Positions 14,905 through 60,572 of a stretch of DNA of 64,000 bases are shown here, one piece after another. Positions within the stretch are counted from its first letter, which is position 1. The number at the start of each line of letters is the position of its first letter. The stretch lies in contig DATFYA010000187.1 of the NCBI GenBank assembly GCA_035315345.1, positions 3,436 through 67,435 on the forward strand, in the 5' to 3' direction. The notes beneath the pieces are model-generated. The model worked only from the letters and a program-made list of their open reading frames with translations. It searched no databases and had not been told where the DNA came from. The position numbers and the translations under genes are program-made. Source of the DNA: Candidatus Methylomirabilota bacterium (GTDB lineage: Bacteria; Methylomirabilota; Methylomirabilia; Rokubacteriales; CSP1-6).

Positions 14905-14914
14905 TTCCCCCGAC

Positions 14915-36917: not shown

Positions 36918-37241
36918 CTAGGCGGAGACTCCGACCTGCTCGACGGCGACGTGGGCCATGCCGGCGCGCCGCGGACGCAGCGTGCGGTTGGTCCACCGCG
37001 CGACCACGTGGCCCAGCGTCTGCTCCTCGATCAGGCCTTCCGACTTCAGCTGCTTGAAGACCTGGGTCCAGCCGGAGCTCTGCTGCGCCAGGAAAAGAAT
37101 CTCGTCGAGGCTCTTCCGCGCCGGCACGGCGGGCGTGCTCTGCGCGTCGTACAGGGCGTGCGCGATCTGCGAATCCGAGGGCATCGCGCTCGGCTCGCGT
37201 CGATACCCGGAGCCGACCAGCAACCGGAGCGTCGTCGTCAT
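36918..37241 (-). CDS. hypothetical protein (107 aa), no family recognised
   Basis: ATG 37241 within track ORF 36918..37289, preceded by GGGGAGGAACGAGCC (SD with 7-nt spacing). G/C-rich third positions. The segment KSLDEILFLAQQSSGWTQVFKQLKSEGLIEEQ might be a winged-helix-like region (speculative). Confidence 0.55.
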   Translation of the reverse strand: MTTTLRLLVGSGYRREPSAMPSDSQIAHALYDAQSTPAVPARKSLDEILFLAQQSSGWTQVFKQLKSEGLIEEQTLGHVVARWTNRTLRPRRAGMAHVAVEQVGVSA

Positions 37242-37536
37242 GGCTCGTTCCTCCCCTGTGGCGATTCCGGCGGAACCCGTCTGGCTCATCGGCCGTGGCC
37301 GCGTTGGTGATGCGGGAGGCGATGGGCTCGGGCGAGCTGACCGGGGTACTCGTGCGGGGACTCCAGGGTATGACGCTCCCGGAGCCCTCCTCGGGCACCG
37401 TGAAGTCCCGCGATGCGGTGCCGGTGGTGACCTGCGCCCGACTTCATCTCGCCGGGCCGGCTTCCACCGGGCCTCGCGCCCTTCACGCTGCTGCCGTCCG
37501 CAAAGTCCGCCATGGCTAATGCCGGTCCTTGCTAGG

Positions 37537-37691: not shown

Positions 37692-38480
37692 CTAGCGGGG
37701 CAGCCAGTCCCGCAACGGCTTGACGATCGCGCCGGCCTTGACCAGGCCCTCCCGCACCGCCGCGACGATCTTGTCCGAGCCGGGGCTGTCGCCGTGGATG
37801 CAGATCGTCGCGACGTTCGCGTCGATCACCTTGCCGGTGATGGTGCGGACCTTGCCCTCCATGGCCATGCGCACGGCCTGGTCGGCTGCCTTGGCCGGAT
37901 CGGTGATCAGCGCGTCCTTGCCGAGCTTGCGGGTGACCAGCTGGCCGTCGTCGGCATAGACGCGGTCGGCGAAGCCCTCGGCGGCGATGCGCACGCCCGT
38001 CACCTTCCGCGCCTCCGCGTCGTACTTGGTCATGGCCATCGTCATCAGGATGATCTCGGGGTCCAGCTCGAGCACCTGCTCGGCGCTCGCCCGTCCCAAT
38101 GGCAGATTTTCTTCGAACATGTGGTACTGGATGCCGTGCGGCTTCACGTGCTGGATGCGGGTGCCCGCGGCCTGCGCGAAGGCGGCGAGGGCGCCGACCT
38201 GGTAGCGGTGGATGTCCTTCAGCTCGGCGGGGGACACGTCCATGCGGCGCCGTCCGAAGCCCATCAGATCGGGCAACCCCGGGTGCGCCCCCACCGCGAC
38301 GCCGTGCTGGATGGCCAGCTCCACGGTCCGGCGCATGACGTGCGGGTCACCGCCGTGGAAGCCGCAGGCGATGTTGGCCGAGGTGATGTTGGGCATCACC
38401 TCCTCGTCGTGACCGAGGGTCCAGCGGCCGTAGCTCTCTCCCATGTCGCAGTTGATGTCGATGTGGACGGGCTGGCTCAT
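37692..38480 (-). CDS. pxpA: LamB/YcsF family lactam hydrolase (5-oxoprolinase subunit A-like)
   Basis: ATG 38480 (ATGA overlap with the upstream LLM stop) within track ORF 37692..38798. IDINCDMGESYG, NIACGFHGGDP, VKPHG motifs. Confidence 0.88.
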   Translation of the reverse strand: MSQPVHIDINCDMGESYGRWTLGHDEEVMPNITSANIACGFHGGDPHVMRRTVELAIQHGVAVGAHPGLPDLMGFGRRRMDVSPAELKDIHRYQVGALAAFAQAAGTRIQHVKPHGIQYHMFEENLPLGRASAEQVLELDPEIILMTMAMTKYDAEARKVTGVRIAAEGFADRVYADDGQLVTRKLGKDALITDPAKAADQAVRMAMEGKVRTITGKVIDANVATICIHGDSPGSDKIVAAVREGLVKAGAIVKPLRDWLPR

Positions 38481-39412
38481 AGCTTGGGCAAGACCTCCTT
38501 GGCGATTCGCTCGACCTGCTCCGGCTGATACCGGTACGGGATCAGGATAATCCGATGCACGCCGGTCCGCACGTGGGCGCGCAGCTGCTCGATGCAGTCC
38601 GCCACCGAGCCGTGGATCGCGTGATCGATGGTGGATTCGCTCCAGGCCGCGGTGTCCCACTCCGTGGAGAGCCACTTCCGCATGTCGGCGGTGGTGTCTT
38701 CTCGAGATCGGCCCACGTAGATCGCGAGCTGGTTGGTGGCGGTCAGCCGGGCCGGATCCCGTCCGGCCTCGCGCGCGAAGCCCTTCACCTTCTCCCACGA
38801 CGTGGCGAAGCTCTCCGGGGTGTAGAAGTAGGTGAGCCAGCCGTCACCCACGGTGCCGGCCCGCCGTAGCACCGCGTCCACGTAGCCGCCGACCAGCACG
38901 GGCGGGCGAGGGCGCTGCGCGGTGCGCGGCACCATGACCGCCTCGCGCAGGTTGAACTCGTCCACCTTCAGGGTCACGCGATCCTGGGTCCAGAGCCGCG
39001 TCAGGATGTCGAGGTTGCGCTCGAACTGCCGCCCGCGCTGCTTGAAGGGCACGCCGACCGCGTCGAATTCGCGCGCGTACCAGCCCGCGGCCACCCCGAG
39101 GATCAGCCGGCCCCCCGAGATCACGTCGAGGCTGCCCAGGGCCTTGGCCGCCACTACCGGGTTCCGCAGCGGCAGCACCAGCACGCCGGTGCCGAGCTTG
39201 ATCTTCCGGGTACGGGCGGCGACGGCGCCCAGCATCGTGATCGAGTCCACGATGGGAAACGAGGGCTCCACGCCGAGCAGCACGTGGTCCCAGGCCCAGA
39301 GCGACTCGAAGCCGAGCGCTTCGGCGCGCTCCGAGTAGGCGTAGAGGGCCTGGATATCGGGCACCTCGCCGGGTCCCACGAAGTTGCGAATCGCCAGACC
39401 GAAGTCGGTCAT
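38477..39412 (-). CDS. luciferase-like (LLM class) flavin/F420-dependent oxidoreductase
   Basis: Track ORF. FESLWAWDHV...KLGTGVLVLPLRNP...RLILGVAAGW pattern. Confidence 0.85.
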   Translation of the reverse strand: MTDFGLAIRNFVGPGEVPDIQALYAYSERAEALGFESLWAWDHVLLGVEPSFPIVDSITMLGAVAARTRKIKLGTGVLVLPLRNPVVAAKALGSLDVISGGRLILGVAAGWYAREFDAVGVPFKQRGRQFERNLDILTRLWTQDRVTLKVDEFNLREAVMVPRTAQRPRPPVLVGGYVDAVLRRAGTVGDGWLTYFYTPESFATSWEKVKGFAREAGRDPARLTATNQLAIYVGRSREDTTADMRKWLSTEWDTAAWSESTIDHAIHGSVADCIEQLRAHVRTGVHRIILIPYRYQPEQVERIAKEVLPKL

Positions 39413-39465
39413 CGGGTGCGGTCCTTTCAGGGCGTTCCTGGCGGTCGACCGTTTGGTTGTTCAGG

Positions 39466-39696
39466 CTCTTCAGCTGCGGGGGCCCCGAAATGGCCCCCGC
39501 ACTCCCCCCGTCGGCGGACAATCGTTCTTGCGCCCATAGGCCCACTTGGCCGTCCGCACTCCTCCCGTCGGCGGACAATCGTTCTTGCGCCCATAGGCCC
39601 ACCGGGCCGTCCGCACTCCTCCCGTCGGCGGACAATCGTTCTTGCGCCCATAGGCCCACCTGGCCGTCCGCACTCCCCCCGTCGGCGGACAATCGT
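39466..39696. repeat. hairpin plus 57-bp tandem repeat array (3.6 copies) in an operon spacer
   Basis: 9-bp GC hairpin GCGGGGGCC-N7-GGCCCCCGC at 39476-39500. Repeat units lie at 39491-39546 (56 nt), 39547-39603, 39604-39660 and 39661-39696 (partial). Units 2 and 3 differ at a single nucleotide. Confidence 0.9.
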
Positions 39697-39707
39697 GGGG
39701 GGTGAGT

Positions 39708-40469
39708 TCATCCGATGAATTGGCGGTTGGGGTCGAGCATGCGGAGGATGGAGAGCTCCTGGTCGGTGGGGGGCTTGGTGGTGGTGAGGTCGGGGCTCAC
39801 GAGGACGTCGAATCCGGTGTTGTCGCGCACCTGCTCCAGACTGACGCCCGGGTGCAGGGCAAGCAACTGCACGCGGCGGCTCTTCGCCTCGAAGCCGAAG
39901 ATCCCGAGGGTGGTGATCAGCCGCGAGACGCCGCCGAACAGGAGGCCGTGGCGGGCGCGGGCATCGCCGCCGTCCAGGTAGCCCGGGCTCGTGACGAAGT
40001 CCACCCGCTCGGTGAACCGGCGCTTCTCGTGCACGGTGAGGATCATCACTTCGCGACAGAGCGAGATGATGTCGTTGGCGCCGCCGCTCCCGGGCAGCCG
40101 CACCTTGGGGCGCGCGTAGCCGCCGATCGCGCTGGTGTTGAGGTTGCCGTGCCGATCGATCTGAGCGCCGCCGATGAAGCCCACGTCGAAGAAGCCGCGC
40201 TGGGCGAGCAGGAACGCGTCGCTGATGCCGGGCAGCATCTGGGCGCGGTAGGCCGCGCGCATCTCGTTGGTCGAGATCGGCAGCTCGCCCGGCTTCCACA
40301 TCGGCCCGATCACGCCGCCCTCCACCATCATGGTGAGGCCGGGGGCGTGGGTGCGCTGGGCCAGCACGGAGGCCATCATCGGCGCGCCGACTCCGGTGAA
40401 CACGGTGGAGTTGTCGCGCAGCTCGCGGGCCCCCATCACGGCGAGCAGCTCGTTGGCGGTGACGCTCAT
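39708..40469 (-). CDS. CoA-transferase subunit B (glutaconate/3-oxoacid CoA-transferase family)
   Basis: ATG 40469 (ATGA overlap) within track ORF 39708..40664. FIGGAQIDRHGNLN and LPGSGGANDI motifs. Confidence 0.85.
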   Translation of the reverse strand: MSVTANELLAVMGARELRDNSTVFTGVGAPMMASVLAQRTHAPGLTMMVEGGVIGPMWKPGELPISTNEMRAAYRAQMLPGISDAFLLAQRGFFDVGFIGGAQIDRHGNLNTSAIGGYARPKVRLPGSGGANDIISLCREVMILTVHEKRRFTERVDFVTSPGYLDGGDARARHGLLFGGVSRLITTLGIFGFEAKSRRVQLLALHPGVSLEQVRDNTGFDVLVSPDLTTTKPPTDQELSILRMLDPNRQFIG

Positions 40470-41428
40470 GTGGTGAGCATCCGGGCGCGCGCGGCCGCGT
40501 CGGCCATGCGGACCTCGCCGAAAAGGGCCAGATAGTCGGCGTGACCGCGGGGCGCATACACGTAGCGCTCCAGGTAGTCGGCCACGCCGGCGGCGCCGCG
40601 CTGCTGGATGCTCTCGACGTAGGAGGTGAAGTGGTCGGGCTCGGCGTCGTAGGCGCCGTAGCACTCGTGCGGGTAGGAGCCGTAGGGCACGTGGGCGAGC
40701 GCGTCCACCATGAAGCCCGGGATCACGGTGCGATCCGGATGCAGGCGGATCTCGTCCTCCGAGACGATCTCCTCGGCGGTCACCAGGACGGTCGACGCGG
40801 CGCGGGCGATGTCGGCGTCCATGTGCGGGTAGCCGTCGATCTGGCAGTTCCCGAGCCGGTCGGCGCGCTGCACATGCAGCAGGGCGACGTCAGGGAACAG
40901 GGCGGGCACCGCGTGCAGCGTGCGGCCGGTGTACGGGCATTCCACCGTTTTCGAGCCGCCCACCCCCATCAGATCCGAGCCCAGCATGGTGAGCGACGGC
41001 AGGAACGGCACGCCCATGGCGGCGGCTCGATAGCGGAGACCCAGGCCCAGGTGGCTCCATTCCTCGAACGCGATGCGCCCGGACTCCACATACTCGCGCT
41101 GGATGCGCGAGAGGCCCCACGGGAGCCCGATGCCCATCCAAGAGGTGACCAGCTTGTCCACCGCGCCCGCGACCACGCCCCACTCGCCCTCGTAGCACAT
41201 GAGGTTGCGGGAGAAGGCGAGCCGCCGGGGCCGGCGGCGCAGCAGGGCCCACACCAGCGCCAGCGGGGTGCGTGAGTAGAGGCAGCCGCCGATGGCGAGA
41301 TGGTCGCCGTCCTTGACCAGCGCCACCGCGTCCTCGAGGGGGCCGAGCTTCGGGCCGGCCGACTTGGCCTTGTCCTCGATCCGTCGCCGCGCGGCGTAGA
41401 AATCGTACTCGCGGGGGGCGATGGTCAC
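40466..41428 (-). CDS. CoA-transferase subunit A (glutaconate CoA-transferase-like)
   Basis: GTG 41428 (GTGA overlap) within track ORF 40466..42460. VKDGDHLAIGG..., ALLHVQRADRLGNCQIDG pattern. Confidence 0.85.
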   Translation of the reverse strand: MTIAPREYDFYAARRRIEDKAKSAGPKLGPLEDAVALVKDGDHLAIGGCLYSRTPLALVWALLRRRPRRLAFSRNLMCYEGEWGVVAGAVDKLVTSWMGIGLPWGLSRIQREYVESGRIAFEEWSHLGLGLRYRAAAMGVPFLPSLTMLGSDLMGVGGSKTVECPYTGRTLHAVPALFPDVALLHVQRADRLGNCQIDGYPHMDADIARAASTVLVTAEEIVSEDEIRLHPDRTVIPGFMVDALAHVPYGSYPHECYGAYDAEPDHFTSYVESIQQRGAAGVADYLERYVYAPRGHADYLALFGEVRMADAAARARMLTT

Positions 41429-42483
41429 GCGAGGATCTCCCACGTCTTCTGATAGCGGTCCAGCTGCTGGACGGTGTGGGCGTCCAGGGGATGCTCGCGC
41501 TCGGGGATCTCGACGTGCTTGGTCTCGCCGCACAGCGGAGTGGTGAAGTACCGCTGGCCAGTGTCGTTGATGACGGTCAGCACCGAGGGCAGGCCGGGAT
41601 GACGGCGCGCCAGCTTCAACGCGGCGGCCACGTTGCAGCCGCTCGAGATGCCGCAGAAGATGCCTTCCTCGCGGGCCAGCCGTCGCGCGATGTCCACGCT
41701 CTCGTCCGTGGTGGTGGTGATGATCCCGGTCAGCAAGGACACGTCGAGGTTGCGCGGCACGAACCCGTCCCCGATGCCCTCGATGCCGTGATGACCCCAC
41801 GCGCGCCGGGAGAGCAATGCGCACTCCGCGGGTTCCACCGCGTAGAGCTTGACCTCGGGGTCGCGGCTGCGCAGATAGCGGCCGACGCCGGTCAGGAGGC
41901 CGCCCGAGCCCTGCGAGTCCACGAAGGCGCCGATGCGGCCCCCCGACTGCTCCCAGATCTCGGGGCCGGTGCTGAGGATGTGGGCCTCGACGTTGTCCGG
42001 GTTGTCGAACTGCCCGGGCACCCAGTACCGGCCGGGCTCGGAGTCGCGAATCTGCCGCAGACGCTCCAGTGAGAGATCCACGTCGCTCTCGCCGCCCGGC
42101 GTGAAGACGAGCTCGGCGCCGTAGGCGCGCATGATCTTCTTGCGCTCGTCGCTCATGCCCTCCGGCATCACGATCGTGCACGGATAGCCCTTGACCGCCG
42201 AGACCCAGGAGCAGGCGATGCCCGCGTTGCCGGTCGAGCACTCCAGCACGCGCACGCCCGGCTTCAGATCGCCGCGGGCCTCCGCCCGCTCGAACATGTG
42301 CAGATAGATCCGGTCCTTGAGGCTGCCCGTCGCGCCGTACCACTCGACCTTCACGTAGATCGCCGGCGCGACGTCGCGGGTGACGCGGTTGAGCCGCACC
42401 AGCGGCGTGCGTCCCACCGCGGCGGCGATGGAGGGCAGGGCCTCGCGGTAACGGTTCCACTGCGTGCCGGTCTTCGGATCCAT
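41425..42483 (-). CDS. cysteine synthase/cystathionine beta-synthase family PLP-dependent enzyme
   Basis: ATG 42483 within track ORF 41425..42612. GRTPLVRL, GATGSLKDRI (PLP lysine), STGNAGIA, GSGGLLTGVG motifs. About 40-aa C-terminal extension. Confidence 0.85.
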   Translation of the reverse strand: MDPKTGTQWNRYREALPSIAAAVGRTPLVRLNRVTRDVAPAIYVKVEWYGATGSLKDRIYLHMFERAEARGDLKPGVRVLECSTGNAGIACSWVSAVKGYPCTIVMPEGMSDERKKIMRAYGAELVFTPGGESDVDLSLERLRQIRDSEPGRYWVPGQFDNPDNVEAHILSTGPEIWEQSGGRIGAFVDSQGSGGLLTGVGRYLRSRDPEVKLYAVEPAECALLSRRAWGHHGIEGIGDGFVPRNLDVSLLTGIITTTTDESVDIARRLAREEGIFCGISSGCNVAAALKLARRHPGLPSVLTVINDTGQRYFTTPLCGETKHVEIPEREHPLDAHTVQQLDRYQKTWEILA

Positions 42484-42488
42484 GGTCG

Positions 42489-43040
42489 CTAGCCTCGCGC
42501 GGTCGGTGTCGCCACCCCGACGCCCCGCAGGAACTTGGTGAGTCGGTGCCGGCCGGAGGTGAGCGGCTCGTAGCGCGGCGGGTTGTCGGGACCGCAGCAG
42601 CCGGGCAGACACTCGATCACCGCGTCGTAGTTCGGCTGGAAAAAGGAGGGGATCGAGAGGCGCCGGTTGCCTCGTGCCGTCTCGCGGGGAGGGTTCACCA
42701 CGCGGTGCATGGTCGAGATCCAGCGGTCGTTGGTGAGATCGGCGGCGGTGGCGTCACCGCGGCTGTAGGAGAGGTTCTCGTCGCCCAGCGCGATGTAGCC
42801 GCGGCTCTGCTCGGGCGCCGGGCGCGCCACCGCCTGCTTGGGCGGGACGGGCAGGTCGAAGAAGGCGCGCGATGTCTCGAGCATGCGGGCCACGAGGCGG
42901 TCCGGCACGCGGTGGCCGACGATCGTGAAGAAGCCGATGTCGGTGCAGGCGGTGTCGATCGCGCGCGCCACCGCCGCGCGCTTTTCCGGCGCACCCTCCC
43001 CGAACGCGGTCAGGTCGATCACCGGCACGGTGGTGAGCAT
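42489..43040 (-). pseudogene. 2OG-Fe(II) oxygenase remnant with large in-frame internal deletion
   Basis: ATG 43040 within track ORF 42489..43142. The N-terminal DIOX_N-like part (VPVIDL...IGFFTIVGHRVP...AFFDLP) joins directly to the distal LTNDRWISTMHRV...RLSIPSFFQP segment. The core with the HxD iron-binding motif is absent (183 aa versus about 320 expected). Confidence 0.6.
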
Positions 43041-43050
43041 CGAGAGCCGG

Positions 43051-43746
43051 CTACCGCTCGGCGCGCCGGGTGAACTCGAGCGCGTCTTGCAGCACGTGAT
43101 CGGCGTGAGCGCGGGCCAGCCGCTCGCCGCCCTCGGCGTCACCCGACCGCACCGCCTCGAAGAGGGCGTGGTGCTCGGCCACGCTCGACTCGACCCGCTC
43201 GGGCAGGTAGAGCGACCGGAGACGGAGCACCAGGATCTGCGCGTAGACGTTCTCGAGGAGCCGGGTGAGGGCCTGATTGCGGGCGGCGCGCAGGACGCAG
43301 TCGTGGAAGTCGATGGCGGCGCGCGAGTAGCCCTCCATCTCGCCGGCGGCCGCCGCGCGCTCCATCTCGGCCATCGCGGCCTCGAGGGCGGCGCGCGAGT
43401 CGCCGTCCAGATGGCGGGCGGCCTGGCGCACCGCGAGCGCTTCCAGCGCCCCGCGCACCATGAACAGATCGCGGATCTGGTCCGCGCCGTAGTTGAGGAC
43501 GAAGACGCCGTGGCGCGGCACCGTGTTCACCAGGCCCTCGCTCTCGAGGCGACGCATGGTGTCCCAGACGGGGGTGCGGCTCACGCCCAGGTCGCGGCAG
43601 ATCTGCTCGACGTTCAGCTTGGAGCCGGGCGGGAAGACCTGACTCAGGATGAGTTCGCGCACGGTGCGGTAGACCCGCTCGCCGAGGCTCTCGTGCCGCA
43701 ACCGCGCGATCGACGCGCGCGGGGCGCTCGCTCTCACCGGGGTCAT
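43051..43746 (-). CDS. GntR family transcriptional regulator (FadR/FCD subfamily)
   Basis: Track ORF. wHTH region LNVEQICRDLGVSRTPVWDTMRRLESEGLV followed by an all-helical FCD-type C-terminal domain. Confidence 0.9.
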   Translation of the reverse strand: MTPVRASAPRASIARLRHESLGERVYRTVRELILSQVFPPGSKLNVEQICRDLGVSRTPVWDTMRRLESEGLVNTVPRHGVFVLNYGADQIRDLFMVRGALEALAVRQAARHLDGDSRAALEAAMAEMERAAAAGEMEGYSRAAIDFHDCVLRAARNQALTRLLENVYAQILVLRLRSLYLPERVESSVAEHHALFEAVRSGDAEGGERLARAHADHVLQDALEFTRRAER

Positions 43747-43754: not shown

Positions 43755-43824
43755 ATTCTTGGCGCGCCGGTGAGCGATGTCAACCGGGTTTTCATTTGAC
43801 ACGTGACATGAAATGTAGGATAAG
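43755..43824. promoter_or_regulatory. divergent promoter pair with dyad-symmetric candidate GntR operator
   Basis: Minus strand: TTGACA (43783-78), 17-nt spacer, AAGAAT (43760-55), ending 8 nt before ATG 43746. Plus strand: TTGACA (43796-801), 17-nt spacer, GATAAG (43819-24). The dyad TTTCAT-N12-ATGAAA (43790-43813) encloses CACGTG. Confidence 0.4.
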
Positions 43825-43891: not shown

Positions 43892-45064
43892 ATGAAGCGA
43901 GCAATCCGAGCCCTTTCCCTCGCGCTGGCGTCCGCGCTGGCGATGTGGACGCCGTCCGCGCACGCGCAGGACGCGGTGAAGATCGGCGTGATCGAGCCGC
44001 TGTCCGGCCCGGTGGCCGCCTCCGGCAACTACGTGCGCATGGGCGCCGAGATCGCGCGGGACTGGATCAACGCCAAGGGCGGCGTGCTCGGGCGCAAGAT
44101 CGACCTCCTGATCGAGGACAACAAGTCCGACCCGAAGGAAGCGGCCACCGCGGCCGAGAAGCTGATCGTGCGCGACAAGGTGCCGGTCATCATGGGCGCG
44201 TGGGGCAGCTCGATGACGCTGGCCGCGATGCCGAAGCTCGAGGAGTACGGCGTGCCGATGGTGGTGGAGACCTCGAGCGCCGCGACCATCACCAAGCGCG
44301 GCAACCCGTGGATCTTCCGCATCAGCCCGCCCAGCGAGATGGAGGCGCTCGGCCTCGAGAAGTATCTCAAGGACTTCGGCATCAAGCAGGCCGACTTCCT
44401 CGCGGTCAACACCGACTGGGGCCGCGGCTCGGTCGGCGCGTTCGGCGATCTCCTGAAGCGGTCGGGCGCCTCGGTGGGCGCGGTCGAGTACATGGACCAG
44501 GCCGCGACGGACATGAACGCGCAGATCACCAAGGTGAAGGCGGGCTCGGCCGACACGCTGTTCCTCACCACCAGCGTCGAGCAGATCACGCTCGTGCTGA
44601 AGCAGGCGCAGGAGCAGCGGCTGACCCGCAAGGTCATCACCACCGGCGGCAGCTCCTCCCCGAGCCAGCTGATCAAGCAGGCGGGCGCCGCCGCGGAGGG
44701 CAGCTACCACATCCTCTTCTTCCTGCCCTGGTTCCCGGAGGCGATGCCGGACGGCAAGCTCGCCAAGGCGTTCGTCGACGAGTGGGCCAAGCGCGGCCAT
44801 CCCTTCGAGGGCTTGACCGAGGGCTTCCGCGGCCACGACGGCGTGCTCACCGCGGTGGAGGGCATCCGGATCGCGGGCAAGGCGGAGCCGAAGGCGGTGC
44901 AGGCCGCGCTCTGGAACGTCAACGTGATGGGGCTCAACGGGCCCATCAAGTTCGAGAAGGACGGGCCGGCGGGCAAGGAGAGCGGCCAGAGCAAGCCGAG
45001 CATCTTCATCGTCCAGGTGAAGGACGGCAAGATCGCGCTGCCCGCGTTCGCGGCGAAGAAGTAG
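43892..45064 (+). CDS. branched-chain amino acid (Liv-type) ABC transporter substrate-binding protein
   Basis: ATG 43892 with AGGAGG RBS, within track ORF 43745..45064. Signal peptide, then the KIGVIEPLSGPVAASG...MGAWGSS pattern. Confidence 0.88.
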   Translation: MKRAIRALSLALASALAMWTPSAHAQDAVKIGVIEPLSGPVAASGNYVRMGAEIARDWINAKGGVLGRKIDLLIEDNKSDPKEAATAAEKLIVRDKVPVIMGAWGSSMTLAAMPKLEEYGVPMVVETSSAATITKRGNPWIFRISPPSEMEALGLEKYLKDFGIKQADFLAVNTDWGRGSVGAFGDLLKRSGASVGAVEYMDQAATDMNAQITKVKAGSADTLFLTTSVEQITLVLKQAQEQRLTRKVITTGGSSSPSQLIKQAGAAAEGSYHILFFLPWFPEAMPDGKLAKAFVDEWAKRGHPFEGLTEGFRGHDGVLTAVEGIRIAGKAEPKAVQAALWNVNVMGLNGPIKFEKDGPAGKESGQSKPSIFIVQVKDGKIALPAFAAKK

Positions 45065-45086
45065 CGAGACCGGCGACCGCGGGCGC

Positions 45087-45959
45087 TTGGACCAGCTTCT
45101 CCAGCACCTGCTGAACGGGCTGCTGCTGGGCGCCACCTACAGCCTGCTCGGGATCGGGCTCACCCTGGTCTTCGGGTTGATGAACGTGGTGAACTTCGCC
45201 CACGGTGAGTTCTACACGCTGGGAGCGTACGCCGCATTCGCGGCCCTCACCCTGAGCTCGGTGAATTTCTTCCTGGCCATTCCCGTCGCGATCGTGGTGG
45301 GCGCGCTCGCCGGGGCGATCTGCGAGCGGTGCTTGCTGCGGCCGATGCGCGGGCAGTCCATCGACACGGTGATGCTGGTGATGATCGCGGTGTGGATCGC
45401 CATGCAGAACGCCGAGCTGCTGGGCTGGGGCGGGGTGGCCAAGAGCGTCCCGACCCCGTTTTCCACGCAGCCGCTGGTGCTGGGCGCGGTGTCGGTGGCC
45501 CCGCTGCGCGTCTTCGTGTTCGTGATCTCGGGTCTGCTCATCCTGGGCGCGCACCTGCTGCTGGCGCGCACCAAGCTCGGCCGCGCCATGCGGGCCACCT
45601 TCCAGGACCACGAGACCGCCGCGCTGATGGGGGTGAGCATCGAGCGCATCCACACCATCACCTTCGCCTTCGGCGCCGGACTGGCCGCGGCCGCGGGCGC
45701 GCTGCTCGGGCCGGTGTTCCTGCTCTATCCCTCGATGGGCGATCTGGCTTCGCTCAAGGCCTTCTCGGTGGTGATCCTGGGCGGCCTCGGTAATTTCGCG
45801 GGCGCCGCGCTCGGCGGGCTCGTGCTCGGGGTGGCCGAGGAGCTGGGGGCCGGCTACGTGTCCTCCGGCTACCGCGACGCGGTCGGCTTCCTCATGATCG
45901 TGGCGGTGCTGCTGCTGCGCCCCTCCGGCCTGTTCGCCCGCGCGGAGCGCGTGGGATGA
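45087..45959 (+). CDS. livH: branched-chain amino acid ABC transporter permease
   Basis: Track ORF (TTG start). LLNGLLLGATYSLLGIGLTLVFGLMNVVNFAHGEF pattern. Confidence 0.88.
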   Translation: MDQLLQHLLNGLLLGATYSLLGIGLTLVFGLMNVVNFAHGEFYTLGAYAAFAALTLSSVNFFLAIPVAIVVGALAGAICERCLLRPMRGQSIDTVMLVMIAVWIAMQNAELLGWGGVAKSVPTPFSTQPLVLGAVSVAPLRVFVFVISGLLILGAHLLLARTKLGRAMRATFQDHETAALMGVSIERIHTITFAFGAGLAAAAGALLGPVFLLYPSMGDLASLKAFSVVILGGLGNFAGAALGGLVLGVAEELGAGYVSSGYRDAVGFLMIVAVLLLRPSGLFARAERVG

Positions 45960-46909
45960 CCCGGGTCGGCCTGCTGCTCGGGCTGGCCGTGATCGCGACG
46001 GCGCCGCTCTGGGTGTGGAATCCGTACCAGCTGCACACGCTGATCATGGCCGGCATCTTCGCGGTGCTCGCCCTGAGCCTGAACCTGCTCCTGGGCTACA
46101 CCGGGCAACTCTCCCTCGGCCACGCCGCCTTCTTCGGCATCGGAGCCTACGCGACCGGCCTGCTCACCGTGAAGCTCGAATGGTCGCCGTGGATCGGGCT
46201 CCTCGCCTCCGCGGTGCTGCCGGCGATCGCCGGCTACGTGATCGGCCGCCTCGCGCTGAAGCTGCGCGGCGCGTACTTCGTGCTGCTCACGATCTCGTTC
46301 GCCGGCTGCGTCTCGCTGGTCAGCGTCAACTGGATGGATCTGACCAACGGTCCGCTCGGCATCCCGGGCGTGCCGCCGGTGGAGATCGCGCTGCCCGGCT
46401 TGCCCGCGCTCTCGCTGCGGACGAAAGCCGCCTACTACTACCTCGTGCTCGCCGGGGTGGCCCTCGCCTACCTGGTGTGTCTGGCCCTCATCCGGTCGCG
46501 CGTCGGCCGGGCGCTGGTGGCCCTGCGAGAGAACGAGACGCTGGCCGCCTCGGTGGGCATCGACGCCACCCACTATCTGGTGCTCGCCGCGCTCATCAGC
46601 GCGGGGATGGCCGGCTTCGCGGGCGGCCTCTACGCCCACTACACGCGCTTCGTGAGCCCCGAGGTGTTCCTGTTCACCTATACGGTGACCATGGTCATCA
46701 TGGTGGTCGCCGGGGGAAAGGGGACGCTGGCCGGGCCGGTGGTCGGCGCGGTCCTCTTCACGGTGCTGCCGGAGGCGCTCCGGGCCGCCACCTCGTGGCA
46801 GTGGCAGATGCTGCTCTACGGTGTGCTGCTGCTCGTGGTGCTCTTCTGCATGCCGGCGGGCATCGTGCCGACGCTGCGGGGGGCCCGGCTCCGCGGGAGG
46901 ACCTCGTGA
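45956..46909 (+). CDS. livM: branched-chain amino acid ABC transporter permease
   Basis: ATGA overlap with livH. LLLGYTGQLSLGHAAFFGIGAY pattern. Confidence 0.88.
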   Translation: MTRVGLLLGLAVIATAPLWVWNPYQLHTLIMAGIFAVLALSLNLLLGYTGQLSLGHAAFFGIGAYATGLLTVKLEWSPWIGLLASAVLPAIAGYVIGRLALKLRGAYFVLLTISFAGCVSLVSVNWMDLTNGPLGIPGVPPVEIALPGLPALSLRTKAAYYYLVLAGVALAYLVCLALIRSRVGRALVALRENETLAASVGIDATHYLVLAALISAGMAGFAGGLYAHYTRFVSPEVFLFTYTVTMVIMVVAGGKGTLAGPVVGAVLFTVLPEALRAATSWQWQMLLYGVLLLVVLFCMPAGIVPTLRGARLRGRTS

Positions 46910-47679
46910 CCACCCTCGAGGCCCGGGATCTCACCGTGCGCTTCGGCGGCGTGGCCGCGCTCGCCGGGGTGAGCTTCACGGTGGCCGCGGGCACCGTCAC
47001 GAGCCTCATCGGCCCCAATGGCGCCGGCAAGACCACCGCGTTCAACGTCATCACCGGCTTCCAGCGTCCGACCCAGGGCGTGGTGAGCCACGACGGCCAG
47101 CCGATCACCGGGTGGCGCCCGCATCGCATCGCCGCCCGCGGGCTCGTGCGCACGTTCCAGAAGACGAGCCTGTTCCCGGCCCTCACGGTGCGCGAGAACG
47201 TGCTGATCGGCCTGCACCTGCAAGGACGCGTGGGCGTGGTCGCCGCGCTCACCACCCGCAGGCGGGTGCGCGACGAGGAGCGCCGGCTCGGCGAGGAGGC
47301 CGACCGGGTGATCGACTTCGTGGGTCTCGGGGCGCGCCGCCACGAGACGGCGCCGGCCCTGTCCTACGGCGATCAGCGTCGCTTGGAGCTCGCGGTCGCG
47401 CTGGCGGCCCGGCCGCGGCTCCTCCTGCTGGACGAGCCGGCCTCGGGCATGACCGCGTCCGAGAAGCAGTCGGTGGCCGCGCTCATCGCGAAGATCCGGG
47501 AGCAGGGGATCACGGTGTTCCTGGTCGAGCACGACATGCGGCTGGTCATGGGCATCTCGGATCGCGTGCTCGTGCTGAACTACGGACGGCTCATCGCGGA
47601 TGGCGGCCCGGCGGCGGTCCAGCGCGACCCGGAGGTCATCCGCGCGTACCTCGGATCGGGGGCCCATGCTCACGCTTGA
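46906..47679 (+). CDS. livG: branched-chain amino acid ABC transporter ATP-binding protein
   Basis: GTG 46906 (GTGA overlap) within track ORF 46015..47679. GPNGAGKTT, LSYGDQRRLELA, LLLDEPASG. Confidence 0.9.
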   Translation: MTTLEARDLTVRFGGVAALAGVSFTVAAGTVTSLIGPNGAGKTTAFNVITGFQRPTQGVVSHDGQPITGWRPHRIAARGLVRTFQKTSLFPALTVRENVLIGLHLQGRVGVVAALTTRRRVRDEERRLGEEADRVIDFVGLGARRHETAPALSYGDQRRLELAVALAARPRLLLLDEPASGMTASEKQSVAALIAKIREQGITVFLVEHDMRLVMGISDRVLVLNYGRLIADGGPAAVQRDPEVIRAYLGSGAHAHA

Positions 47680-48370
47680 GGATGTCGGCGTACGCTACGG
47701 ACGCACCCGCGCGCTGGACGGCGTCAGCCTCACCGTGAGCGCCGCCGAGTTCGTGTGCCTCATCGGGGCCAACGGGGCGGGGAAGACGACCACGCTCAAG
47801 GCCATCTCCGGCCTGGTGCGGGCCGCGGCCGGGCGCATCGTGTTCGATGGGCGCGAGATCCAGCGCCTGGCGCCGCAGGAGATCCTGCGCCGGGGCATCG
47901 CGCATTGCCCGGAGGGCCGCCGGGTCTTTCCGTACATGACGGTGGACGAGAACCTCCAGATGGGCGCCTACGTGCGCACCGATGCCGCGGACGTCGCCCG
48001 CGATCGGGAGCGGGTGTTCGCGCACTTTCCGATCCTGGCCGAGCGGCGCCGGCAGCCGGCCGGGACGCTGTCCGGCGGCGAGCAGCAGATGCTGGCGATC
48101 GGCCGCTGCCTCATGGCGCGCCCGCGCCTCATCCTGTTCGACGAGCCGTCGCTGGGACTGGCGCCGACCGTCACCGAGTCCGTGTTCCAGATCATTTCGG
48201 GCATCCAGCGGGAGGGGACGACCGTGCTGATGGTGGAGCAGAATGCCTACATGGCCCTGCAGCTGGCCGGCCGCGCCTACGTCATGGAGACCGGCCGCAT
48301 CACCCTGGAGGGCCCGGCCCGCGACCTCATGCACAACGACCGCGTCAAGCACGCCTACCTCGGCGGCTGA
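47666..48370 (+). CDS. livF: branched-chain amino acid ABC transporter ATP-binding protein
   Basis: ATG 47666 within track ORF 47600..48370. GANGAGKTT, LSGGEQQMLAIGR, ILFDEPSLGLAP. Confidence 0.9.
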   Translation: MLTLEDVGVRYGRTRALDGVSLTVSAAEFVCLIGANGAGKTTTLKAISGLVRAAAGRIVFDGREIQRLAPQEILRRGIAHCPEGRRVFPYMTVDENLQMGAYVRTDAADVARDRERVFAHFPILAERRRQPAGTLSGGEQQMLAIGRCLMARPRLILFDEPSLGLAPTVTESVFQIISGIQREGTTVLMVEQNAYMALQLAGRAYVMETGRITLEGPARDLMHNDRVKHAYLGG

Positions 48371-48460: not shown

Positions 48461-48475
48461 CAGGGGTCACGGTTG

Positions 48476-50827
48476 ATGGGCGCAAAGTATTTTGGTGCAT
48501 CGGTCAAGCGCAAGGAAGACCCGCGCTACCTGCGCGGCGAAGGCCGCTACGTGGACGACATCAAGCTGCCCGGCATGCTCCACGCCGCCTTCGTGCGCAG
48601 CCCGTACGCGCACGCCCGCATCACCGCGATCCGCCCCGAGGCGGCCCGACGGCTGCCCGGCGTCGCCCACGTGTTCACGTTCGCGGACCTGGAGCGCTGG
48701 ATGAAGCCGCTGCCGCTCTTCGGCGCGATCCCCCCGGGCCTGGCCGCGCGCGTGCAGGTGACGATGAGACAGGTCGGTCAGCTCGCCATGTGCCGGGACG
48801 AGGTGCGGCACGTGGGCGAGATCGTGGCCATGGTGCTGGCGTCGAGCCGCGCGGTCGCCGAGGACGGCTGCGAGCGGGTGGAGGTGGACTACGAGCCGCT
48901 CCCGGTGCTGGCCGACGTGATCACGGCCGGCGAGCCCGGGGCGCCCGTGCTCTATCCCGAGTGGGGCGACAACGTGGCGCTCTCATTCAAGACCGGCTTC
49001 GGCGACGTCGAGGCGGCGCTGCGCCAGGCCGATGCCCGGGTGCGGGAGCGCTTCGTCATCCCGCGCTACGTGGGCATGCCCATCGAGACGCGCGGGGTGG
49101 TCGCGCAATGGGATCAGCGCGACGGCAGCCTCACCACCTGGAACGGCACCCAGGTCGTGCACTTCGTCCAGCAGGGTCTGGTGGCCGCGCTCGGGCTGCC
49201 GCCGAGCCGCGTTCGCGTCATCGCCCCCGACGTCGGGGGCGGCTTCGGCACCAAGGCCAACGGCTATCCGGAGGACCTGCTCATCCCCGCCGCGGCGATC
49301 GCGTCACGCCGGCCGGTGAAGTGGACCGAGGATCGGCGCGAGCACATGATGGGCTCGGCGCACGCGCGCGCGCAGGTGCACGACATCGAGATCGCGGCCC
49401 GCCGTGACGGCACCATGCTGGCGGTGCGCGACCGCATCTGGGTCGATCTGGGGGCCTACAACTCCTGGGGCATCGTGCTGCCGTACAACACGGTCGCCCA
49501 TCTGCTCGGCCCGCATCGCGTCCCCAATCTGGACGTGGAGTGCCGCGGGATCGTGACCACCAAGACGCCCAACGCGCCGTATCGGGGCGCGGGCCGTCCC
49601 GAGACCGTCTTCGCGATGGACCGCATCGTGGACTGCCTGGCCCGCGAGCTGCGCCTGGACCCGGCCGAGCTGCGCCGGCGCAACTACCTTGCCCAGGCCG
49701 ACATGCCCTACGAGCTGAACATCCCGTACCGCGACGGCAATCCGCTCGTGTACGACAGCGGCGACTGCAAGGCCTCGCTCGAGGACGCGCTTCGTGCGGT
49801 CGGCTACGAGGCCCTGCGTGCCGAGCAGGCCCGGCTCCGCGAGCGGGGCATCTACCGCGGCATCGGTCTCTCCGGCTACGTGGAGGGCACCGCGATCGGG
49901 CCCTACGAGGGCGCGACCGTGAAGCTCGACGCCTCGGGTCATGCCACCGTGGCCACCGGCGCGTGCAGCCAGGGCCAGGGCCACGAGACCTCGTTCGCGC
50001 AGATCGCGGCGGACGCGCTGGGCATCCCGCTCGAGTGGGTGACCGTGGTGGGCGGCGACACCGCGGCCATTCCGTTCGGGGTGGGCACGTTTGCCTCGCG
50101 CAGCGCGGTGAACGCGGGCAGCTCGATCCACGAGGCGTCGGGCCGCGTGCGCGAGAAGATCGTCACCGCGGCGGCCGCCCTGCTCGAGGCCGCGCCCGCC
50201 GACATCGAGGTCGCCGACGGTGTGGTCTCGGTGCGCGGGGCGCCGGGATCGGCCACGCCACTGGCCGGGGTGATCCGGGCCGCGATCCCGACCTTCGCGA
50301 AGCCCGGTGTGGCCTCGCCCGATTTCGAGGCGACGGTCTATCACCATCAGCCCACCGTGACCTACACGAACGCGGTCCACGTGGCGGTGGTGGACGTGGA
50401 TCCGGGCACCGGCGCGGTGAAGCTCCTCCGTTACCTGGTCGCCCACGACTGCGGCAAGCTCATCAATCCGGTGATCGTCGAGGGCCAGATCCACGGGGGC
50501 GTCGCCCAGGGCATCGGCGGCGGGCTGCTCGAGGAGATGGTCTACGACGAGCAGGCCCAGCTCCTCACCGGCACGTTCATGGACTACCTGGTGCCGACCG
50601 CGATGGAAGTGCCCGCCATCGAGACGGTCCACCTCGAGTACCCGTCGCCCCGCAATCCGCTCGGCATCAAGGGCATCGGCGAGGGCGGCGCCATCTCGCC
50701 GCCGGCCGCCATCGCCAACGCGGTGGAGGACGCGCTGTCGCCCTGGGGCGTGCGGGTGACGCGCACGCCGCTGGGCCCGTCGGTCGTGCTCGGGCTGCTG
50801 GAGCGCGCCGGGGCGAAGCCGGCATGA
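48476..50827 (+). CDS. xanthine dehydrogenase/CO dehydrogenase family molybdopterin-binding large subunit
   Basis: ATG 48476 within track ORF 48419..50827. MGAKYFGASVKRKEDPRYLRGEGRYVDD N-terminus and a PYRGAGRPE active-site loop (not the form I CODH AYxCSFR signature). Confidence 0.88.
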   Translation: MGAKYFGASVKRKEDPRYLRGEGRYVDDIKLPGMLHAAFVRSPYAHARITAIRPEAARRLPGVAHVFTFADLERWMKPLPLFGAIPPGLAARVQVTMRQVGQLAMCRDEVRHVGEIVAMVLASSRAVAEDGCERVEVDYEPLPVLADVITAGEPGAPVLYPEWGDNVALSFKTGFGDVEAALRQADARVRERFVIPRYVGMPIETRGVVAQWDQRDGSLTTWNGTQVVHFVQQGLVAALGLPPSRVRVIAPDVGGGFGTKANGYPEDLLIPAAAIASRRPVKWTEDRREHMMGSAHARAQVHDIEIAARRDGTMLAVRDRIWVDLGAYNSWGIVLPYNTVAHLLGPHRVPNLDVECRGIVTTKTPNAPYRGAGRPETVFAMDRIVDCLARELRLDPAELRRRNYLAQADMPYELNIPYRDGNPLVYDSGDCKASLEDALRAVGYEALRAEQARLRERGIYRGIGLSGYVEGTAIGPYEGATVKLDASGHATVATGACSQGQGHETSFAQIAADALGIPLEWVTVVGGDTAAIPFGVGTFASRSAVNAGSSIHEASGRVREKIVTAAAALLEAAPADIEVADGVVSVRGAPGSATPLAGVIRAAIPTFAKPGVASPDFEATVYHHQPTVTYTNAVHVAVVDVDPGTGAVKLLRYLVAHDCGKLINPVIVEGQIHGGVAQGIGGGLLEEMVYDEQAQLLTGTFMDYLVPTAMEVPAIETVHLEYPSPRNPLGIKGIGEGGAISPPAAIANAVEDALSPWGVRVTRTPLGPSVVLGLLERAGAKPA

Positions 50828-51693
50828 AGGCCGCACCATTCGAGTACGTGGCGCCGGTCACCCTGGACGACGCGGTGGGCGCGCTGGCCGGCGAGGGCGG
50901 GGACGCCAAGGTCCTCGCCGGAGGACAGAGCCTGATCCCGATGCTCGCGCTCCGGCTGGCGCGGCCGACGCTGCTCGTCGACATCAACCACATCGCGGGC
51001 CTCGACGGCCTGCGCGAGTCGTCGGGCACGCTCGAGATCGGCGCGCTCGTGCGGCAGCGCCGTCTCGAGCGCTGGGCCGCGTCGCGCTCCGATCTCTTCG
51101 CCGAGGTGCTGCGCCACGTCGCCCATCCGCCGATCCGCAATCGCGGCACCGTGGTCGGCAACGTGGTCCATGCCGATCCCGCGTCGGAGCTGCCCGCGCT
51201 GCTGCTCTGCCTGGAGGGCGTCGTGGTCGCGCGCGGGCCCCGGGGCGAGCGCACCCTCGCGGCCGATCGGCTCTACCGGGCTCCGTTGACCACCTCACTG
51301 GGCGCCGACGAGGTGGCCACCGCGGTGCGCTTCGCCTTGCCGCCGGCGGGGGCGGGCTGGGGGTTCGCGGAAGTGTCGCGGCGGCACGGCGACTTCGCGC
51401 TGGTCGGCGCCGTCGCGGTTCTGGCCCGCGCGGCCGGCGGGCCGGTCACGCGCGCGCGCCTGGCCTTCTTCGGGGCCGGTGGCACCCCGATGCGGGGCGT
51501 GGCCGCCGAGCGGATCCTGGAAGGCCACGAGCCCACGCCGACCCGGCTCGGTGAGGCCGCGCGGGCGGCGGCGGCCGCGCTGTCGCCGGACGACGACATC
51601 CATGCCACCGCGGCCTACCGGCGGCGGGTGGCCGCGACGCTGGCCGAGCGCACCCTCGCGGCCGCCCTGGCGCGGTGCGGGAGCGGCGCATGA
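50824..51693 (+). CDS. molybdenum hydroxylase FAD-binding medium subunit (CoxM-like)
   Basis: ATG 50824 (ATGA overlap) within track ORF 49540..51693. PFEYVAP...[14 protein letters not shown] pattern. Confidence 0.85.
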
Positions 51694-52169
51694 GCCGGAC
51701 GATCCGGTTGACCGTGAACGGCCAGGAGCACGAGCGCGCCGTCGAGCCGCGCACCACCCTGGCCGACTTCCTGAGAGAGGACCTCGAGCTGACCGGCACT
51801 CACGTCGGCTGCGAGCACGGCGTGTGCGGGGCCTGCACGGTGCTGCTCGACGACGAGCCGGTGCGCTCGTGCCTCATGCTCGCGGTGCAGGCCGACTCGC
51901 GGCGCATCACGACCATCGAGGGCGTGGCGCCCGCCGAGGGCCTCCATCCCATCCAGGAGGCGTTCTGGGCCAAGCACGGACTGCAGTGCGGCTACTGCAC
52001 GCCCGGCATCGTCATGAGCGCCTGCGCGTTTCTCCGCGAGCGCCCCGACCCCTCGCCGGAGGAGATCCGCGAGATGCTGGCCGGGCACCTGTGCCGCTGC
52101 ACCGGCTATCACTTCATCGTCGAGGCGATCGAGGCGGCGGCCCGCGCGCTCAGGGCGGCGGACAAGTAG
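51690..52169 (+). CDS. (2Fe-2S)-binding small subunit (CoxS-like)
   Basis: ATG 51690 (ATGA overlap). [12 protein letters not shown] and QCGYCTPG cluster motifs. Confidence 0.9.
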
Positions 52170-54361: not shown

Positions 54362-54368
54362 GAGCGCG

Positions 54369-54920: not shown

Positions 54921-54935
54921 CGTCCTGACCCCCGA

Positions 54936-55724: not shown

Positions 55725-55757
55725 GACCCGTCCCTCCCGTGATCTCGAGGCGGCGCC

Positions 55758-57172: not shown

Positions 57173-57187
57173 GGCTCTCCCGATGGG

Positions 57188-59256: not shown

Positions 59257-59305
59257 GGCCTGGCTCCCGATGGCTGCGAGGGATCGCGCGCGACGCGCAA
59301 GCGGC

Positions 59306-59334
59306 AGTCTACTCCAGGCCGCGAGCGCGCTCAA
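59306..59334 (-). promoter_or_regulatory. candidate sigma70 promoter TTGAGC-17-TAGACT
   Basis: On the minus strand, TTGAGC lies at 59334-29 and TAGACT at 59311-06, about 50 nt upstream of ATG 59256, which has a GGGAG SD. Confidence 0.4.
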
Positions 59335-59357
59335 CCGACCCGTCTCCGTCTCGGGAC

Positions 59358-60395: not shown

Positions 60396-60471
60396 GGAGT
60401 ATCCTCCCTTGAGAGGTGCGGGGCAGTGCGCAGGACGCATGGCCCGTCCAGGTAACCGGAAGTCGCAGCGT

Positions 60472-60501: not shown

Positions 60502-60572
60502 CGCGCGCGTCGCCTCGGATGATCGCCGCATCGTCCGCCGTCGGGCCGAACGCCCGGGAAAGGCTTCAACCA

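Follow-up and report, generated by a model that had tools for sequence, protein, structure and literature searches.

A conserved Rokubacterial core of a CysK-fold enzyme, a CoA-transferase and an F420-class oxidoreductase, and its possible place in a cross-phylum pathway for N-containing cyclic acids

Do a GntR-type regulator, a CysK-fold enzyme, a CoA-transferase, a luciferase-like oxidoreductase (LLM) and a PxpA-type lactamase, encoded side by side on the minus strand of a 64-kb stretch of DNA from a Candidatus Methylomirabilota bacterium (contig DATFYA010000187.1, Rokubacteriales; about 70% G+C), serve a single pathway, and if so which one? An earlier note, made from the letters of this stretch (hereafter the window, meaning all 64 kb), described the genes as one seven-gene operon and, together with a divergently transcribed importer and Mo-hydroxylase, as a catabolic island that could not be matched to a described pathway. 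On balance we favour the reading that the region is the Rokubacterial version of a cross-phylum, F420- and CoA-dependent pathway for an imported N-containing cyclic (carboxylic) acid; our confidence in any particular substrate is much lower.

We distinguished true genes from spurious open reading frames (ORFs) by their G+C content at third codon positions (GC3), called families with Pfam and NCBIfam profile scans, and took solved relatives from comparisons with PDB structures. By these measures the seven minus-strand genes from 43746 to 37692 are as previously described, all with high GC3 and in the families proposed for them, and the seventh, which had been left without a name, is a 2-oxoglutarate (2OG)-Fe(II) oxygenase with an internal deletion. 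The genes, the one long spacer between them and the ORF that follows are:

43746..43051, minus strand: regulator with GntR and FCD domains, 231 aa (Pfam GntR PF00392, 4.8e-16; FCD PF07729, 1e-27)
43040..42489, minus strand: remnant of a 2OG-Fe(II) oxygenase matching DIOX_N only, 183 aa
42483..41425, minus strand: CysK-fold pyridoxal phosphate (PLP) enzyme, 352 aa (PALP, PF00291, 1.9e-71)
41428..40466, minus strand: CoA-transferase alpha subunit, GctA-like (CoAT-A), 320 aa (CoA_trans PF01144, 6.3e-26)
40469..39708, minus strand: CoA-transferase beta subunit, GctB-like (CoAT-B), 253 aa (PF01144; 1poi_B, 1.1e-42)
39413..39707: spacer between CoAT-B and LLM genes, with tandem repeat, 295 nt
39412..38477, minus strand: LLM (Bac_luciferase; TIGR03619), 311 aa
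38480..37692, minus strand: LamB/YcsF protein of the PxpA type, 262 aa (PF03746, 3.6e-91)
36918..37289, minus strand: ORF without family 3' of pxpA, 123 aa (GC3 0.89)

Four junctions had been thought to share stop and start nucleotides. We find such 4-nt overlaps at three, GTGA between the CysK-like and CoAT-A genes and ATGA both between CoAT-A and CoAT-B and between LLM and pxpA, the last of these bearing out the proposed coupling of pxpA to the oxidoreductase; the remaining gaps are of 10 nt, 5 nt and 295 nt. The plus-strand genes beyond pxpA converge on it. The 123-aa ORF has no Pfam or NCBIfam match and occupies the same position 3' of pxpA in 13 relatives at 71-85% identity, and may belong to the pxpA unit.

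How much of this run is conserved can be judged from its relatives. A motif scan using one genome per species yielded 529 relatives of CoAT-A, the best 80 of which (66-93% identity, nearly all from Rokubacterial metagenome-assembled genomes, MAGs) were examined with 10-kb flanks; fractions below refer to loci with enough flank. Close homologues of the window proteins carry the names Methylomirabilota or Rokubacteria. The CoAT-B gene follows the CoAT-A gene in 73/73 loci and the LLM gene comes next in 59/60, with the CysK-like gene immediately preceding CoAT-A in 59/71; L037-L040 and L042 show a second gene order, with this gene downstream of pxpA. The conserved core consists of the CysK-fold PLP enzyme, the GctA/B-type CoA-transferase and the F420-type LLM, and not of all seven genes as a single operon. 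The other members depend on the clade. In clade I, defined by a CoAT-A identity of at least 74% to the window, pxpA directly follows the LLM gene in 22/25 loci, the 4-nt overlap being kept in 22/25, as against 0/37 among the more distant loci that we call clade II. The corresponding figures are 16/24 and 0/34 for the GntR regulator, 12/24 and 0/34 for the 2OG oxygenase, and 18/20 and 1/21 for the large Mo-hydroxylase subunit CoxL. A comparison of orthologue neighbourhoods, which the earlier note had suggested, upholds the CysK-like/CoA-transferase pair in most loci and the pxpA-LLM pair for clade I only. Clade II has instead a DHDPS-family gene and a second Liv-type system after the LLM gene (30 loci). 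In the Rokubacterial cluster at large, occasional inserts include a methyltransferase (L007) and a LysE exporter (L038).

At several loci (L015, L016, L020, L021, L024, L028, L042, L044) the Rokubacterial cluster, at 76-90% protein identity, is found under foreign MAG names (Dormiibacterota, Nitrosotalea, Acidoferrum, Deferrimicrobiaceae, Limnocylindria, Verrucomicrobiia and Binatia), which are probably binning errors.

The CysK-fold enzyme has the PLP-lysine motif GSLKDR and, as had been noted, a C-terminal extension, here of approximately 30 aa (CysK structures align over residues 16-320 of its 352 aa). It falls just under all of the CysK/CysM cutoffs, with scores of 324.5 against 344.15 for cysKM, 317.2 against 350.95 for cysK and 262.7 against 394.2 for cysM. 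The substrate loop of canonical CysK and CysM is TSGNT; the Asn loop here reads LECSTGNAG, with STGNA as the substrate loop, and 66/69 homologues have it without change. Among the solved relatives are O-ureidoserine synthase and beta-cyanoalanine synthase. We considered whether the gene could be a bystander housekeeping cysK, which is unlikely given its place beside CoAT-A in 59/71 genomes, and which is also disfavoured by its presence within the cluster in the second gene order and by a divergent CysK-fold counterpart in the Sinorhizobium-type lineage described below.

The description of CoAT-A and CoAT-B as a glutaconate-CoA-transferase-like pair holds, since the best solved relatives of the two subunits are GctA (1poi_A, 6.5e-38) and GctB of Acidaminococcus fermentans, to which they are also similar in length. 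Glu50 of CoAT-B (MMVEGG) aligns to the Glu of the GctB IIVESG motif, VEGG lying on VESG, and is invariant in 147 homologues, 77 of them Rokubacterial and 70 Sinorhizobium-type. The non-transferase relatives of the pair are AibAB (5mzw) and IpdAB (6co6); in the decarboxylase AibB, which shares the fold, the position that aligns with this residue is not a Glu, unlike in the window protein. An identity as an AibAB-like decarboxylase or an IpdAB-like ring hydrolase was set aside because the GctB-aligned Glu is invariant; with this residue kept, true transferase chemistry is expected, and we take CoAT-A/B to be a genuine CoA-transferase. Its surroundings (an F420-class LLM, a PLP enzyme and a Mo-hydroxylase) differ from the glutamate fermentation context of GctAB.

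The LLM scores above the cutoff of an F420-dependent LLM family (TIGR03619, the Rv2161c family; 197.4 bits against 166.9) and its best solved relatives are F420-dependent Mer enzymes. Its sequence identifies it as an F420-class enzyme, a point missed in the earlier note; in other lineages the ensemble is centred on this cofactor. F420 biosynthesis genes have been reported for the phylum (PMC8498797). The window encodes a further LLM at 32129-33067 (plus strand) that passes the TIGR03619 F420 cutoff and is 35% identical to the LLM of the operon; it lies in a separate cluster, with an aldolase-II/short-chain dehydrogenase (SDR) fusion, an FAD/NAD reductase, a glyoxalase, a thiamine pyrophosphate enzyme and a glycosyltransferase as neighbours. 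Another luciferase-like oxidoreductase is encoded at 21533-22567 (plus strand).

Further insight comes from outside the phylum. By tblastn of plasmids, a CoAT-A with 49% identity to that of the window is found on megaplasmids of Sinorhizobium meliloti and S. fredii. The region on pSymA of S. meliloti begins with a pyrC-like gene, livHMGF, npdG (fno), cofD, cofC and a fused cofH/fbiC; continues with CoAT-A, CoAT-B, a TIGR03619 LLM, an ArgE/DapE deacylase and pntAB; and ends with the large (L), FAD and 2Fe-2S subunits of a xanthine dehydrogenase (XDH)-family enzyme and a binding protein, with a GntR regulator further on. Identities between window and pSymA proteins are 49% for CoAT-A, 54% for CoAT-B, 53% for the LLM, 55% for the binding protein and 39% for Mo subunit L; over the recurring ensemble as a whole, proteins of the window and of the Sinorhizobium lineage are 40-57% identical. 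At the thresholds used, nothing in the window matches the pSymA GntR regulator. In a genome-wide association study, a pSymA accessory island of strains GR4, KH35c, KH46 and R28, consisting of exactly these genes, was linked to nodule competitiveness and no function was assigned to it (PMC8407117).

A metagenome scan seeded on the Sinorhizobium protein recovered 80 soil contigs, which we refer to as Sinorhizobium-type for their 68-89% identity to the S. meliloti protein, as they carry no taxonomy. Their typical order is XdhLMS, a LamB-like or M20 hydrolase, Fno, CofD, CofC and FbiC, followed by a 505-aa CysK-fold protein, CoAT-A, CoAT-B, LLM, binding protein and LivHMGF. CoAT-B is present in 60/60 and the LLM in 43/46; the CysK-fold protein, with a STGN Asn loop in common with the window enzyme, stands between fbiC and CoAT-A in 44/51 (L100-L177); FbiC is found in 13/20 where both flanks are available, and Xdh genes in 18/25. 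Where at least 7.5 kb of upstream sequence is present, a LamB-like gene occurs in 11/25 contigs, an M20 gene in 11/25 and both in 0/25, from which it would appear that these are two alternative hydrolases for one step. The solved relatives of the M20 deacylase are ArgE- and DapE-like and uninformative, and give no support to a candidate identity as an N-carbamoyl-amino-acid amidohydrolase. In 8 loci the LLM and binding-protein genes are separated by one for an Fe-S L-serine ammonia-lyase (TIGR00720, 663 bits). The core gene order is in all kept in approximately 150 loci from two distant lineages, and this recurrence of the ensemble in a lineage as distant as Sinorhizobium argues against chance juxtaposition.

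The importer and the hydroxylase have their counterparts in the divergent arm of the window, where the Liv-type gene calls (43892..48370) agree with the genes called in identical contigs. The Pfam assignments are:

43892-45064, plus strand: Peripla_BP_6 binding protein
45087-45959, plus strand: LivH
45956-46909, plus strand: LivM
46906-47679, plus strand: LivG
approximately 47666-48370, plus strand: LivF
48473-50827, plus strand: Mo-hydroxylase large subunit L (CoxL-like)
50824-51693, plus strand: Mo-hydroxylase subunit M (FAD)
51675-52169, plus strand: Mo-hydroxylase subunit S (2Fe-2S)

The divergent Liv importer and CoxLMS-like genes of the earlier note are therefore present; the CoxL-like subunit stays below the carbon monoxide dehydrogenase cutoffs (558.6 against 991 for TIGR02416 and 787.5 against 950 for NF040766) and under that for glyceraldehyde dehydrogenase, and we class the genes at 48473..52169 as encoding an XDH-family Mo-hydroxylase and not carbon monoxide dehydrogenase. 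Solved binding proteins gave no clue to the ligand, as the best match (E 1e-28) is to generic Leu/Ile/Val binders that are too distant.

The regulator at the head of the minus-strand run has both its N-terminal GntR winged helix and its C-terminal FCD domain, and reaches no equivalog cutoff; as seen above, it is restricted to the nearest relatives. A candidate gntR promoter, TTGACA-17-AAGAAT at 43783..43755 (minus strand), stops 8 nt short of the ATG, so that the transcript would have almost no leader; this is the one sigma-70-like site seen in 7.2 kb, where 0.2 are expected. Just upstream of it, at 43790-43813, lies a palindrome with 11-nt arms, TTTCATTTGAC-AC-GTGACATGAAA. An exact copy of its core is present in 12 other loci at species level, every one with GntR, and in no locus that lacks GntR. 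The palindrome is a plausible candidate operator for both arms.

The minus-strand run itself carries signs of change. The DIOX_N protein at 42489-43040 aligns to 334-aa orthologues from sister genomes that have both DIOX_N and 2OG-FeII_Oxy (PF03171), and an in-frame internal deletion of 151 aa has removed its HxD iron ligands (AHTDYG), so that DIOX_N is all that matches; the window oxygenase is presumably inactive. Full-length copies occur in L014, L016, L019, L025 and L027, and L017, L022 and L026 have none. The spacer between the CoAT-B and LLM genes contains a 57-bp tandem repeat in 3.5 copies at 39497-39696 (Tandem Repeats Finder score 372, 96% match), the array ending in a GC-rich hairpin, GCGGGGGCC-ATTTCGG-GGCCCCCGC; the fold of the entire 295-bp spacer is unremarkable (z = -1.29). 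An identical PxpA is listed in 51 metagenome-collection blocks, and the six contigs shown share the gene order. Among same-species contigs the gap measures 181, 238 or 295 bp, which marks the 57-bp unit as a copy-number variant, and related repeats of 71-80 bp occupy the same spacer in sister species (repeat-bearing loci noted are L001-L006, L014 and L019). In many other relatives the gap is only about 7-30 bp, and the spacer is thus an insertion into a once-tight operon. We also considered a dispersed REP or MITE element (a repetitive extragenic palindrome or miniature inverted-repeat transposable element), an identity that finds no support; the 33-nt core of the repeat occurs nowhere else in the window, and its 25-nt core, with zero mismatches, is found among 93 loci in four same-species contigs only.

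Window PxpA passes the NCBIfam PxpA subfamily cutoff (NF003814, 317 bits against 226), and its alignment to seven further PxpA/LamB proteins, that of E. coli among them, has 51 invariant columns, by which measure it is intact. Pfam scans covering almost every coding ORF of the 64 kb reveal neither PxpB (CT_C_D) nor PxpC (CT_A_B), and tblastn searches with the E. coli and Rokubacterial proteins as queries likewise found neither, in agreement with what had first been reported. PxpB homologues are common in the phylum, where their context is classical, namely D-Glu cyclase, pxpB, pxpC and pxpA, sometimes interrupted by inserts. PxpAs of classical clusters are 81% identical to one another and LLM-coupled PxpAs 78-85%, as against 62-66% between the groups; window PxpA is 65-66% identical to a classical-cluster PxpA and, on these identities, represents a paralogous lineage within the phylum, distinct from the classical Rokubacterial pxpA. 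The earlier note had reasoned that its view would fall if classical clusters existed elsewhere and this pxpA were a mere paralogue. Classical clusters and paralogy are indeed found; that the LamB protein is a mere paralogue is not what we conclude, because LamB turns up repeatedly within the ensemble of the Sinorhizobium-type lineage too, where five of the eight fully flanked LamB loci are without PxpB or PxpC within 8 kb and three have both.

Other Rokubacterial loci combine these elements differently. In L096 a classical cluster is followed by LivHMGF next to CoxL, with orthologues of the window binding protein (82%), LivH, LivM, LivF and CoxL (68%). A lone PxpB-like (CT_C_D) gene lies directly after the LLM gene, in the place of pxpA, in L043 (12922-13635), and 6 kb downstream of pxpA in L041 (16764-17486), with no PxpC behind it in either. 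Taken with the window, LamB chemistry is tied to the importer/Mo-hydroxylase arm in three architectures. The window binding protein is thus related both to the pSymA island protein and, more closely, to one beside a classical pxpBCA cluster. As to the classical clusters themselves, pxpB-pxpC-pxpA in L094, L096, L097 and the P0312 contig is always preceded by D-Glu_cyclase (PF07286), additional genes, for example for an aminotransferase or a sensor kinase, often separate pxpC from pxpA, and several clusters are followed by a DUF6282 amidohydrolase-like gene and Liv-type binding proteins. The equilibrium constant of uncoupled 5-oxoproline hydrolysis, about 0.035, is unfavourable, and a role in phosphorylating the ring has been proposed for PxpB and PxpC (PMC13274462). 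A LamB acting alone would therefore require a ring that is different or already activated, or else partners from another part of the genome.

We infer the substrate class (a lactam or N-heterocycle) and the order of steps from the enzyme families only. In the pathway that we propose, the Liv-type system would import an amino-acid-like, N-containing cyclic carboxylic acid, the Mo enzyme would hydroxylate the carbon adjoining the ring nitrogen to give a lactam, and the CoA-transferase would form the CoA thioester. The LLM would then reduce the activated ring with F420H2, supplied by Fno and in S. meliloti also by PntAB, and LamB (or M20) would open the ring hydrolytically, leaving a beta-substituted three-carbon amino acid to be processed by the CysK-fold enzyme and, in some loci, by the Fe-S serine dehydratase too. 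The catabolic direction is suggested by the importer, regulator, hydroxylase, hydrolases and serine dehydratase. In its most specific and entirely speculative version, the Mo enzyme would hydroxylate a five-membered azole or pyrrole carboxylate next to the heteroatom before activation by the CoA-transferase; reduction by the LLM would yield a 5-oxoproline-like ring (a 2-oxo-azolidine-4-carbonyl or 5-oxoprolyl derivative); the lone LamB would open this ring without ATP, pulled by decarboxylation or thioester loss; and the cysteine, serine or diaminopropionate released would be deaminated by the CysK-fold enzyme and serine dehydratase. Of the catabolic island first described, then, the linkage of both arms and the lack of a literature match stand, the uniform unit does not, and the substrate class is conjectural.

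Several observations count against this proposal. Neither the window nor any of the 80 Rokubacterial loci contains an F420 biosynthesis gene. The core can function without pxpA, CoxLMS and GntR, which are missing from the larger clade II, and the peripheral steps may differ between the two clades. S. meliloti itself is without the CysK-fold gene, only 266 bp separating cofH/fbiC from CoAT-A (L010), and the CysK-fold proteins of the two lineages share just 27-32% identity and may not be orthologous. PxpB and PxpC adjoin LamB in four Sinorhizobium-type loci (L130, L160, L163 and L176), and LamB may still depend on PxpB and PxpC supplied in trans. Finally, the repeat spacer with its strong hairpin could uncouple transcription of LLM-pxpA from that of the upstream genes.

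Some of these observations would be expected if the window pxpA encoded the A subunit of an ordinary ATP-dependent 5-oxoprolinase with PxpB and PxpC encoded elsewhere, the substrate of importer and LamB being 5-oxoproline (or the D-glutamate/5-oxo-D-proline pool) and the link to CoA-transferase and LLM being historical. The abundance of classical clusters in Rokubacteria, the arrangement in L096, the PxpB-like genes of L043 and L041, the four loci in which both partners flank LamB, the PxpA subfamily score and the unfavourable uncoupled reaction all fit this explanation. We nevertheless regard it as unlikely, as the LLM-coupled PxpAs form their own lineage and would be a second copy where both exist, the LLM/pxpA overlap is retained in 22/25 clade I loci, the 64 kb contain neither pxpB nor pxpC, and in Sinorhizobium-type loci LamB, for the most part without these partners, alternates with M20 in the same slot, which would be unexpected for a 5-oxoprolinase subunit. 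It is also conceivable that the core is biosynthetic, with the CysK-like enzyme, CoA-transferase and F420H2-dependent reductase making a non-proteinogenic amino acid or small metabolite and the transporter having another role. CysK-family enzymes, including the solved relatives named above, are typically biosynthetic, F420-dependent LLMs act in antibiotic biosynthesis (PMC8498797), and the inserts comprise a 2OG oxygenase that is intact in sister genomes, a methyltransferase and a LysE exporter. Against this, the linkage to importer, GntR, Mo-hydroxylase, hydrolases and serine dehydratase is consistent; no nonribosomal peptide synthetase, polyketide synthase, ligase or precursor-supply genes are seen; and the oxygenase is dispensable, being deleted in the window and absent from three relatives, so that we consider biosynthesis quite improbable. 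The conserved core order in two distant lineages, the overlaps at three junctions and the mutual exclusion of LamB and M20 in one slot make it barely credible that metabolic genes with no relation to one another came together here by chance in a gene-dense genome, forming neither operon nor pathway, notwithstanding the variable edges of the region (GntR, oxygenase, pxpA and CoxLMS all being clade-specific), the repeat-filled gap that splits the run and the decay of the oxygenase.

Known systems resemble the proposed F420- and CoA-dependent pathway in part. The PxpABC 5-oxoprolinases (E. coli ybgJKL, B. subtilis, and C. glutamicum pxpTABC with the GntR-type PxpR) likewise have a LamB/YcsF PxpA, whose invariant residues are intact in the window, and in C. 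glutamicum, as here, a GntR-type regulator is divergent from a transporter (PMC13274462). The window differs in having no pxpB or pxpC, in the coupling of a pxpA of separate lineage to an F420-class LLM, and in its Liv-type ABC transporter, PxpT of C. glutamicum being of APC type. The pSymA island shares orthologous CoAT-A, CoAT-B, LLM and binding protein, XDH-family LMS, LivHMGF and GntR, and differs in having fno, cofD, cofC, fbiC and pntAB inside it, in having an M20 deacylase and a PyrC-like amidohydrolase in place of LamB, and in lacking the CysK-fold gene.

Heteroaromatic acids are degraded through CoA routes that include furoyl-CoA dehydrogenase HmfABC with HmfD and HmfE, the hydroxylation of thiophene-2-carbonyl-CoA, isonicotinate degradation via citrazyl-CoA reduction in Mycobacterium INA1, and 6-hydroxynicotinate reductase with enamidase. 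By analogy, the proposed pathway would have in common with these CoA activation, XDH-family hydroxylation by the heteroatom, ring reduction and hydrolytic opening of a lactam or lactone. It differs in that the cluster has a CoA-transferase and not a ligase, an F420-class LLM as the presumed reductase, LamB or M20 to hydrolyse the ring or amide, and an added CysK-fold enzyme. Literature searches on the gene combination, on TIGR03619 and on proteobacterial F420 operons found no functional study of the pathway; its parts are known kinds of enzymes, and their combination and the tie to F420 are undescribed in the literature searched.

Elsewhere in the window, 14870-16920 (plus strand) encodes a biotin carboxylase and a biotin carboxyl carrier protein amid ABC-transporter genes, with no carboxyltransferase nearby. 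A second CoA-related group at 53579-61436, which shows no conservation with the operon, comprises an enoyl-CoA hydratase (53579-54361), an SDR, a NUDIX protein, an HpcH/HpaI-type lyase (56381-57172), a family III CoA-transferase (57188-58354), an alpha/beta hydrolase and a phosphoenolpyruvate mutase/isocitrate-lyase-like protein (60519-61436). Tandem repeats lie near the end of the window at 62612-62675 (15 bp x 4.3) and 63699-63816 (33 bp x 3.6).

According to a 2021 review, studies of F420-dependent enzymes had been confined to Actinobacteria, and it had yet to be explained why Proteobacteria and other recently identified producers make the cofactor (PMC8498797). In Sinorhizobium-type loci an F420-class LLM, invariably accompanied by a GctAB-type CoA-transferase and mostly by a CysK-fold enzyme as well, lies amid F420 genes, and Rokubacteria have an orthologous cluster; together these genes point to a concrete candidate pathway. 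We suggest, tentatively and with considerable doubt, that an undescribed F420H2-dependent reductive pathway for N- or S-heterocyclic carboxylates may be the principal physiological purpose of F420 production in Sinorhizobium-type Alphaproteobacteria and, to some extent, in Rokubacteria. The cluster would give a testable reason for F420 production in such bacteria, for which island-bearing S. meliloti is a culturable organism, and it offers a natural test of whether LamB/PxpA can act as a lactamase without PxpB and PxpC, and of the role of a CysK-fold enzyme in a catabolic, CoA-dependent context.

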